Positions 57,758 through 59,077 of a stretch of 64,000 nt of DNA are shown here, one piece after another. Position 1 is the first letter of the stretch. Each line of letters starts with the position of its first letter. The notes below the pieces were generated by a model. It was not told where the DNA came from. It saw only the letters and a list, made by a program, of their open reading frames with translations, and did not search any database. This DNA is from Harriotta raleighana (Eukaryota). The DNA is taken from contig JBNZDD010013408.1 of the NCBI GenBank assembly GCA_050575255.1, positions 128,599 through 192,598 of the forward strand, read 5' to 3'. The position numbers were made by a program, and so were the translations under genes.

Positions 57758-59077
57758 TTACTTGTCCTGCGCTCCCTGTATGCGGATTTGTATTGGAACA
57801 GGGTGGGCGGTACTCAGTGATGTCTCACAGAGAGCTGGAGGGGAAAAACAGTCTTTAACCCTTTCCTGCTTTGGCCGTGTACAATTTAATTCCTTGGCAG
57901 ACGTGTGGCAGGATTCCTTGTGGGCAAACAGTTTGGGTATGGATGACCGGGTGGAGCCATCGGACAGAGAGTAGTTAAAGAGCGAAACCAGTGTCCTTCT
58001 GTATTTGCTTTTCATTTCCTTGGCCGACCTGTACAGATCCCCCATGAAGCAGTAGCAAATTGGATTGAGGGAAGAGTTAGTCAGACCAAGCCACTGGGCG
58101 AATGGCCTGAGGATCATGATCCATTCCGAAGATGCCTTGTGGCCCTTTGAAGGCTCTTCCGTGATGAAATCCAACCAGATGTCCACCACGTAGAAAGGCA
58201 ACCAAGACAGAGCGAAGAGAATGACCAAAGCCACCACCATCTTGGCTATCTTTTGGCGTACTTTCAGCCTGGAGGCCGGGAGGGCCTGGTTGCTGGAGTC
58301 GCATTCCTTGAAGCGATCCGAGGCGCTCCACAGCCTCCGCCAAGTCAGGAGGCAGATGACCAGGTTGAAGAGGACGGGCAAGCCGTAGAGGGCGCAGAAG
58401 AGCAGGAAATTGTAAGCCTGCTTCAACCTGACTTGGGGCCAGACTTCACTGCAGAAAGGTATCCCAAAGGTAGCGTCACTCACCTTCAGCTTGTTCATGA
58501 AGATGAGAGGCATACAGATGCCGGACGACACCAACCACACCACGCAGATGGTCCAGGATATTTTGCGATAGGTGAAGAAAGATCTGGCGTTCAGCGGGTT
58601 GTGGACGTTGTAATACCGGTTGACGCTGATCACGGTGATGCTGAGGACACTGGCGGAGACCGAGACGCCTTGGGTGAAGGGCACAGCTCGGCACATAAAG
58701 TCGCCGTAGATCCAGGCCTTGTAGATCTGGTAGCCCAGAGTGGTGGGCATACACACGCAGACCACCATCAGGTCACAAACGGCCAGGTTGATCAGGAGGC
58801 TCCTGGTGGCACTTACCCCGGGCATCCTGTTGTTCCTCTTCCTGGTCAGCACCTTGATGGACATGGCGTTGCCGACGAAACCCACCACGAAGGAGATGGT
58901 GTACATGACGGTCAGGGCGATGGTGGCCGGTTCTCGGATGGTCAGCAGGAGGCTCTCCAAGTTGTCCAGGCTGGCGTGGAGGGACGCGTCCGGGCGGTCC
59001 AGGGACAGGTTCAACCTCCTGAGGTGGGCGACCAAGGGGAAGTTGGGAAAGTGGGCGAACCGCAGGGAGGTATTCAT
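57758..59077 (-). CDS. Class A (rhodopsin-like) peptide-receptor-like GPCR with uninterrupted coding region, 439 aa, NPFF/SIFamide/orexin/QRFP-receptor-like orphan
   Basis: ATG to stop ORF with 7 hydrophobic segments; GN (TM1), NLAVCD (TM2), C at the top of TM3 plus ECL2 FCSEVWP, NRY (TM3), W (TM4), GLPV (TM5), SWLPF (TM6), NSSLNPICY (TM7); N-glycosylation sequons NTS and NLS in the N-terminus. Confidence 0.95.
   Translation of the reverse strand: MNTSLRFAHFPNFPLVAHLRRLNLSLDRPDASLHASLDNLESLLLTIREPATIALTVMYTISFVVGFVGNAMSIKVLTRKRNNRMPGVSATRSLLINLAVCDLMVVCVCMPTTLGYQIYKAWIYGDFMCRAVPFTQGVSVSASVLSITVISVNRYYNVHNPLNARSFFTYRKISWTICVVWLVSSGICMPLIFMNKLKVSDATFGIPFCSEVWPQVRLKQAYNFLLFCALYGLPVLFNLVICLLTWRRLWSASDRFKECDSSNQALPASRLKVRQKIAKMVVALVILFALSWLPFYVVDIWLDFITEEPSKGHKASSEWIMILRPFAQWLGLTNSSLNPICYCFMGDLYRSAKEMKSKYRRTLVSLFNYSLSDGSTRSSIPKLFAHKESCHTSAKELNCTRPKQERVKDCFSPPALCETSLSTAHPVPIQIRIQGAQDK

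Follow-up and report, generated by a model that had tools for sequence, protein, structure and literature searches.

The window (the whole 64,000-nucleotide stretch of Harriotta raleighana DNA that was analyzed) holds, convergent with TTYH3, a long unbroken reading frame for a G-protein-coupled receptor, and the locus raises the question of which family this receptor belongs to, what it would bind and how it would signal. A sequence-only reading of the stretch had proposed an ancient, possibly retroposed neuropeptide receptor of unidentified ligand. Our preferred explanation, to which we give a probability of roughly one in two, is that it belongs to an orphan family outside the NPFF/SIFamide, orexin, QRFP and CCK receptors, would bind an amidated neuropeptide, probably an Arg-Xaa-amide, and would act on G proteins through a non-standard switch. 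The gene and its surroundings are as follows.

57758 to 59077, minus strand: uninterrupted open reading frame for a class A peptide-type receptor, subtype A of the orphan clade (frame reading, Pfam, structural model and tree)
57598 to 57603, minus strand: closest AATAAA candidate for a polyadenylation signal, some 155 nt past the receptor stop
776 to 27114, plus strand: TTYH3, the convergent neighbor, spanning an early exon through the presumed stop codon (matches of exon segments to structures, plus a motif)

The receptor frame runs from ATG to TAA and encodes 439 amino acids without internal stops (59077 to 57758). Pfam 7tm_1 matches it over the full profile (E value of 1e-44), and the AlphaFold model, of modest confidence (mean pLDDT of 59.6), has seven long helices and a strand pair in ECL2. 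The domain, together with the seven helices and their pivot residues, places the protein in class A (rhodopsin), and a pseudogene or an artifact is ruled out by the intact frame and the conserved orthologues. The complete seven-helix frame reported earlier is therefore real, and all the motifs quoted for it are present: TM3 with NRY, TM7 (PFAQWLGLTNSSLNPICY, at 58052 to 58105, minus strand), the basic ICL1 and a tail rich in Ser and Thr. The gene may contain an intron in its 5' untranslated region, where a gap of Ns occupies 59364 to 59467. Just upstream, in a region rich in GC and CpG, an out-of-frame ATG opens an 11-codon frame (59074 to 59109, minus strand) whose TGA overlaps the receptor ATG and which may regulate translation.

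The convergent arrangement with TTYH3 is borne out, as two plus-strand exon segments fit TTYH3 structures far better than those of TTYH1/2 (59 versus 36 bits and 45 versus 22 bits). What we take from a familiar motif to be the last TTYH3 coding exon ends at 27114, and a functional link between the two genes was dismissed, since 30.6 kb separate this presumed stop from that of the receptor and nothing speaks for one. TTYH3 was absent among the matches listed in a literature search on the gene and its synteny. A Pfam scan of the 150 longest (at least 63 amino acids) of the 261 stop-free segments outside both genes gave no match above the cutoff, leaving room for short exons of another gene, and an Rfam scan of 27000 to 64000 gave no matches. 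One plus-strand segment without a Pfam match, at 49163 to 49618, resembles the terminal part of a LINE reverse transcriptase, and a similar remnant may lie at 3728 to 4327. Near-exact tandem duplications broken by single Ns, at 59760 to 60010 and 38910 to 39480, are possibly assembly artifacts.

Among the matches listed, the closest protein was one from Callorhinchus milii (91% identity), automatically named "QRFP-like" by NCBI. The vertebrate clade used for all counts below comprises 191 sequences. One search listed 120 of its 433 matches, and a further listing (120 of 274) added 66 fish sequences. Its named rows cover sharks, rays, lungfish, coelacanth, amphibians, turtles, crocodilians, birds, squamates and ray-finned fishes, with no mammal or cyclostome among those listed (120 of 433 and 120 of 274 matches). 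The proteins split into two subtypes, each following the species tree in a 36-row phylogeny, which places the duplication before the divergence of cartilaginous and bony fishes. Subtype B has support of 100/99, and subtype A, which holds the query, of 71/88 (95/98 for its chondrichthyan and 83/97 for its bony-vertebrate half). By identity, 157 sequences were assigned to A and 34 to B, the latter with no amniotes among its named rows. Many teleost subtype A proteins (P0124, P0127, P0128, P0153, P0154, P0160 and P0286 to P0351) have long termini and reach about 600 amino acids. Chondrichthyan and bird proteins remain 72% identical over the seven-helix region, which argues for a conserved ligand.

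The lineage extends well beyond vertebrates. With a profile built from 36 vertebrate members, invertebrate orphan proteins scored about 245 to 311 bits, versus 164 for NPFFR, 158 for OXR, 137 for CCKBR, 136 for QRFPR, 130 for GALR and 115 for KISS1R (same profile, different libraries). Of the 120 rows listed (of 274) for the reciprocal profile, built from 23 invertebrate proteins, 16 were invertebrate sequences, and the 104 that ranked below them all belonged to the vertebrate clade. Two invertebrate groups could be distinguished. Group 1 contains hemichordates (Glandiceps, Ptychodera and three Saccoglossus copies), annelids and a nemertean, and group 2, a sister protostome family, contains annelid, nemertean, mollusc and insect proteins. 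The three Saccoglossus members (P0280, P0281 and P0282) lie on contigs of identical size (355,436 bases), which suggests a local cluster. The group 2 insects are aphids and a leafhopper (hemipterans), thrips, bees and wasps (hymenopterans) and a caddisfly (P0352 to P0373 and P0178); their proteins carry orexin-, QRFP- or RYamide-like names and make up a candidate orphan insect receptor, with no Drosophila member among the strong matches. Equating this insect group with "neuropeptide receptor A47" was not borne out, N. lugens A47 being listed as the best match of an LGR.

Phylogenetic analysis with IQ-TREE supported this arrangement. In the 36-row tree, the vertebrates received 100/100, the vertebrates plus group 1 98/96 and all of these plus group 2 100/98; the last two values were 91/92 and 98/98 in a 43-row tree. 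These careful trees were computed under LG+G4, while a mixture-model tree of 69 rows, not a completed careful search, gave the orphan grouping an SH-aLRT of 99. Before the first tree, 30 partial representatives of 150 were removed. Many rows lack names; the reference rows were assigned by matching them to PDB entries, and the SIFamide, galanin-like and trissin-like labels are ones we presume from motifs. Approximately unbiased (AU) tests rejected a direct union of the vertebrate clade with NPFF plus SIFamide receptors (P = 6e-5), with orexin/allatotropin receptors (P = 3e-7), with two QRFP-type rows (P = 1e-4) and with a CCK-type receptor represented by one insect row (P = 0.002). The NPFFR and SIFamide group held together at 99/97 without the orphan clade, and a single galanin/kisspeptin row, labeled from what we take to be its motif, fell outside the clade in the 43-row tree. 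The vertebrate stem branch is long (0.8 to 1.2), and the deuterostome members form no supported clade (44/12). Phylogeny had been proposed as the check on the sequence-only reading, and neither trees nor AU tests nest the receptor within the NPFFR/SIFaR, orexin, QRFP or CCK groups. An ancient peptide-type orphan kept by non-mammalian jawed vertebrates is thus upheld, although the lineage is bilaterian, with hemichordate, annelid and nemertean orthologues.

These results leave little of the idea that the receptor is a divergent subtype of a deorphanized family (QRFPR, GALR, CCKBR or NPFFR), which we regard as very improbable. NCBI names such as QRFP-like, galanin receptor-like, CCKB-like and NPFF2-like, and best PDB matches to NPFFR2 and NPFFR1, point that way, but the names within this one clade are many and mutually inconsistent (NPY and orexin occur as well), and a single-sequence search found solved receptors nearly equidistant (113, 112, 112, 109 and 109 bits). 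Seven-helix identity is 28 to 29% to NPFFR2, OX2R and a QRFP-type row versus 41 to 44% to the invertebrate orphans, so that, with the four AU rejections, this explanation is largely refuted. The ESM Atlas returned only generic peptide-receptor clusters, and Foldseek with the low-confidence model returned peptide-receptor matches that did not discriminate.

It is also unlikely, if less so, that the gene encodes a second receptor for a peptide of the orexin/allatotropin kind. In the best tree the whole orphan set is the sister of the orexin/allatotropin receptors (61/77), an orphan branch in the same position has been published with Platynereis members that appear to belong to this family (see below), and P3.29 and the QAVSVS string of TM3 resemble orexin receptors. 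An alternative placement beside the NPFF/SIFamide receptors is nevertheless not rejected (P = 0.17), and the orexin rows have Y6.48 (7/7), a basic 6.58 (7/7) and H7.39. The orphan clade instead combines W6.48 and Q7.39 with a hydrophobic residue at 6.58 and D/E6.59.

The unbroken coding region had been read as a possible sign of retroposition; its occurrence in the invertebrate orthologues speaks against a vertebrate retrocopy. Among 80 loci on metagenome contigs, five encode group 1 orthologues; four (L001 to L004) hold the whole protein in a single frame, and the fifth runs off its contig. Three of the loci sit on contigs measuring 4 to 17 kb, with noncoding flanks. No multi-exon vertebrate parent was found either, and a vertebrate retrogene was rejected; any retroposition would predate vertebrates and is possible at a depth before the protostome/deuterostome split. 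In group 2, the match of 28 of 32 short frames sets in at 3.33 or shortly after (profile positions 107 to 124), and in nine short frames unrelated residues directly precede that point, which suggests that group 2 genes have an intron after Q3.32. Such breaks, set beside the unbroken group 1 frames, make the stem of group 1 and vertebrates the likely origin of the uninterrupted frame, likely before the protostome/deuterostome split. Protein fragments of some teleost subtype A members have a terminus where TM5 starts, or in one case after the NRY motif, which suggests that introns were gained there later. A further long unbroken invertebrate receptor frame (L006:2584-4707, 695 amino acids) is, by its score, unrelated to the orphan family.

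The residues that would face a ligand are the most constant part of the receptor and bear on what it binds.

58670 to 58672, minus strand: Q136 (3.32), predicted contact for the C-terminal amide of a peptide, kept in 191/191 vertebrate members
58445 to 58453, minus strand: C209 (45.50), predicted disulfide partner of C129, and E211 (45.52), predicted arginine contact, both in ECL2 and each kept in 190/191
58169 to 58183, minus strand: D299 (6.55), an acid peculiar to the vertebrate members, and D303 (6.59), an acid of the RFamide-receptor type
58052 to 58108, minus strand: TM7 with R324 (7.35; R in 186/191), Q328 (7.39; Q in 188/191) and NPxxY (N, P and Y in 191/191)

In the accessible parts of the reports on NPFFR2, NPFFR1 and QRFPR structures (PMC12069643, PMC13107563 and PMC11148045), the peptide amide is contacted by C2.57, T2.61, Q3.32 (the amide contact in NPFFR2 and NPFFR1; PMC12069643 and PMC13107563) and Q/H7.39, the arginine by E45.52, Y5.38, T5.39 and D/E6.59, and the last residue by V3.36, 5.42, 6.51 and 6.52. 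All 191 vertebrate members keep C2.57, Y5.38, L5.42, Y6.52 and D/E6.59 as well as Q3.32, and V3.36 and T2.61 occur in 190 and 163. By analogy, the amide of the ligand would sit on C2.57, T2.61, Q3.32 and Q7.39, its arginine on E45.52, Y5.38 and D6.59, and its last residue in the pocket formed by V3.36, L5.42, 6.51 and Y6.52. The earlier argument from the string QGxSVSASV leans on G at 3.33, a variant of the query species present in only 2 of the 191 members; the other 189 have A, and the family string is QAVSV.

Most of these residues (C2.57, T2.61, Q3.32, V3.36 and usually E45.52) also occur in the orexin and SIFamide groups, whose ligands are not known to carry the arginine, so that only 6.59 discriminates. 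This position is acidic in all vertebrate members and in 45/45 and 36/39 of the two invertebrate sets, mostly K/R in the SIFamide group (16/19) and acidic in 0/7 orexin-group rows. Position 5.39 is N in 177 vertebrate members and S in 14, never T. The pocket is not constant throughout, with L at 7.39 in 24 of the 45 invertebrate orthologues. An acid at 6.55 is present in all 191, and the new pair D6.55/R7.35 could be mutually neutralizing or could alter the pocket. As far as the published parts go, T5.39 matters for NPFFR activation (PMC12069643 and PMC13107563), and D6.59 has almost no effect in QRFPR (PMC11148045). Judged from these residues, the ligand is likely to be an amidated peptide. 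An arginine in its next-to-last position is less sure, given the single discriminating position, N/S at 5.39 and the new D6.55 and R7.35; we put it at even odds, with Arg-Xaa-amide as the best guess.

The cytoplasmic face departs from this conservative picture.

58802 to 58843, minus strand: basic ICL1, four residues longer than in the invertebrate relatives and in NPFF, SIFamide, orexin and QRFP receptors
58613 to 58621, minus strand: NRY in place of DRY (N3.49) in TM3; NRY in 187, NRF in 3 and SRY in 1 of the 191 members
58352 to 58354, minus strand: C242 at 5.58, where the activation tyrosine Y5.58 is canonical; C in 94, G in 54, S in 42, A in 1 and Y in 0 of the 191
57761 to 58021, minus strand: C-terminal tail with 18 Ser/Thr in 87 residues (21%), candidate kinase and arrestin sites

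The canonical D/E3.49 is thus replaced by N in 190 of 191 vertebrate members, as it is in 9 of 45 invertebrate orthologues, whereas Y5.58, absent from every vertebrate member, is present in 43/45 and 38/39 of the invertebrate relatives. The spacing between N1.50 and D2.50 is 32 in 169 vertebrate members and 31 to 34 in all 191, against 28 in 45/45 invertebrate orthologues. N5.54 and T5.61 are invariant (191/191), as are R3.50, D2.50, W6.48, P5.50 and NPxxY, and the basic start of TM6 is conserved. According to the available parts of the two studies, Y5.58 contacts Y7.53 in active NPFFR2 and helps to hold the active state (PMC12069643), and 5x58, 3x49 and 5x61 belong to the common activation path (PMC6954041). 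With N3.49 and without Y5.58, signaling may be atypical. W6.48 and NPxxY would relay activation, R3.50 would be held less tightly next to N3.49, and the active state would lack the contact that Y5.58 provides, a gap that N5.54 and T5.61 perhaps fill.

We favor ligand-gated G-protein signaling for what these residues describe. The main rival, which we consider distinctly less probable, is an atypical receptor for amidated peptides, of the RFamide type or others, with poor G-protein coupling and an arrestin-biased or, by analogy with chemokine receptors, scavenging role. It would account for a changed cytoplasmic face over a kept pocket, for changes that fall on the activation path and for the Ser/Thr-rich tail, but it sits poorly with the invariant R3.50, D2.50, W6.48, P5.50 and NPxxY and the kept TM6 start. 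A mainly ligand-independent receptor that sets a basal second-messenger tone is more doubtful still. N3.49 is fixed in the clade, and D3.49N raised basal cAMP eightfold in A2AR in the available part of that study (PMC6954041). A peptide pocket nearly invariant from sharks to birds, however, implies selection for a ligand, and loss of Y5.58 should disfavor the active state. The effect of D3.49N also varies from receptor to receptor, and as one change raises basal activity in A2AR and the other removes a support of the active state, their net effect is not predictable.

In the history that goes with our preferred explanation, the intron after Q3.32 would have been lost before the protostome/deuterostome split and the gene duplicated before the jawed-vertebrate radiation, with a later loss in mammals. 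A broader reading, on which we would not go as far as even odds, has the receptor represent a neuropeptide system of the bilaterian ancestor, whose receptors now range over insects, annelids, sharks and birds, with two copies surviving in jawed vertebrates and none in mammals, an Arg-Xaa-amide ligand and, in vertebrates, a switch rewired without D3.49 and Y5.58. Such a signaling system would be missing from current vertebrate inventories, and deorphanization could be tested directly on the teleost, Xenopus, bird, Platynereis and insect relatives. A natural family without D3.49 and Y5.58 also offers a test case for models of class A activation, and expression studies in non-mammals on genes called "QRFP-like", "galanin receptor 1-like/2a" or "CCKB-like" may sometimes concern this receptor.

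The receptor is of a known kind and probably already cataloged, and it appears to represent an uncharacterized bilaterian peptide system with unusual vertebrate switches. Rinne et al. 2019 (PMC6504862) describe "GPR195", in the part available, as a new orphan lying close to the CCK receptors, present in gar, fishes, sauropsids and, in two copies, coelacanth, and perhaps divided into two subtypes. The vertebrate clade is probably this receptor (ENSLOCP00000021858), matched by description and taxon pattern: the two subtypes, two coelacanth proteins and frequent "CCKB-like" names fit, and the clade shares its distribution, including the absence of mammals. The clade additionally includes sharks, lungfish and amphibians, and our tree rejects a direct union with the CCK-type receptor. 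The GPR195 account, two sentences and a table row in the available text (PMC6504862), covers neither sharks, amphibians nor invertebrate orthologues, and gives no residue analysis or ligand. On the annelid side, the accessible part of Thiel et al. 2024 (PMC11087051) has an unnamed orphan branch, sister to the orexin/allatotropin receptors and without a ligand label, in which four Platynereis sequences (one of group 1 and three of group 2) share the orphan-family motifs, as compared by eye with membership taken from the order of labels in the PDF. No vertebrate member was found with four vertebrate-clade motifs in 14 of the 31 supplementary files of that study, some of them truncated, nor was the family found in the available parts of Thiel 2021 and Rinne 2024. 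The literature searched, mostly outside subscription papers, held neither a deorphanization nor a paper linking vertebrate and invertebrate members. The system presented earlier as potentially uncharacterized therefore still has no ligand in this literature, but it is probably GPR195, with annelid relatives that appear to lie in the orphan branch of Thiel 2024.

Of the characterized receptors, NPFFR1, NPFFR2 and the SIFamide receptors share C2.57, T2.61, Q3.32, V3.36, E45.52 and W6.48 with the present one; NPFFR adds Y5.38, L5.42 and D6.59, and the SIFamide group Q7.39, where NPFFR has H. The orphan clade differs from both in being a separate clade (29 to 35% seven-helix identity), in N5.39 for T, D6.55 with R7.35, NRY, the missing Y5.58 and the unbroken coding region. 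The QRFP receptor (GPR103), source of the automatic name, shares the arrangement of Q3.32, E45.52, an acidic 6.59 and Q7.39, yet union with it is rejected by the AU test and identity to the QRFP-type row is 28%. The closest parallels in category are GPR19, GPR83, GPR150 and b-unchar1-4, orphan neuropeptide-type receptors with protostome and deuterostome members. The available part of Elphick 2018 (PMC5818035) gives the first three as the only bilaterian orphan groups with vertebrate members and b-unchar1-4 as invertebrate only; the invertebrate part of the present family may be one of the b-unchar groups of Mirabeau and Joly 2013. If our reading is true, the family would be a fourth bilaterian orphan neuropeptide receptor group with vertebrate members beside the three of the 2018 review, hidden until now under inconsistent automatic names.
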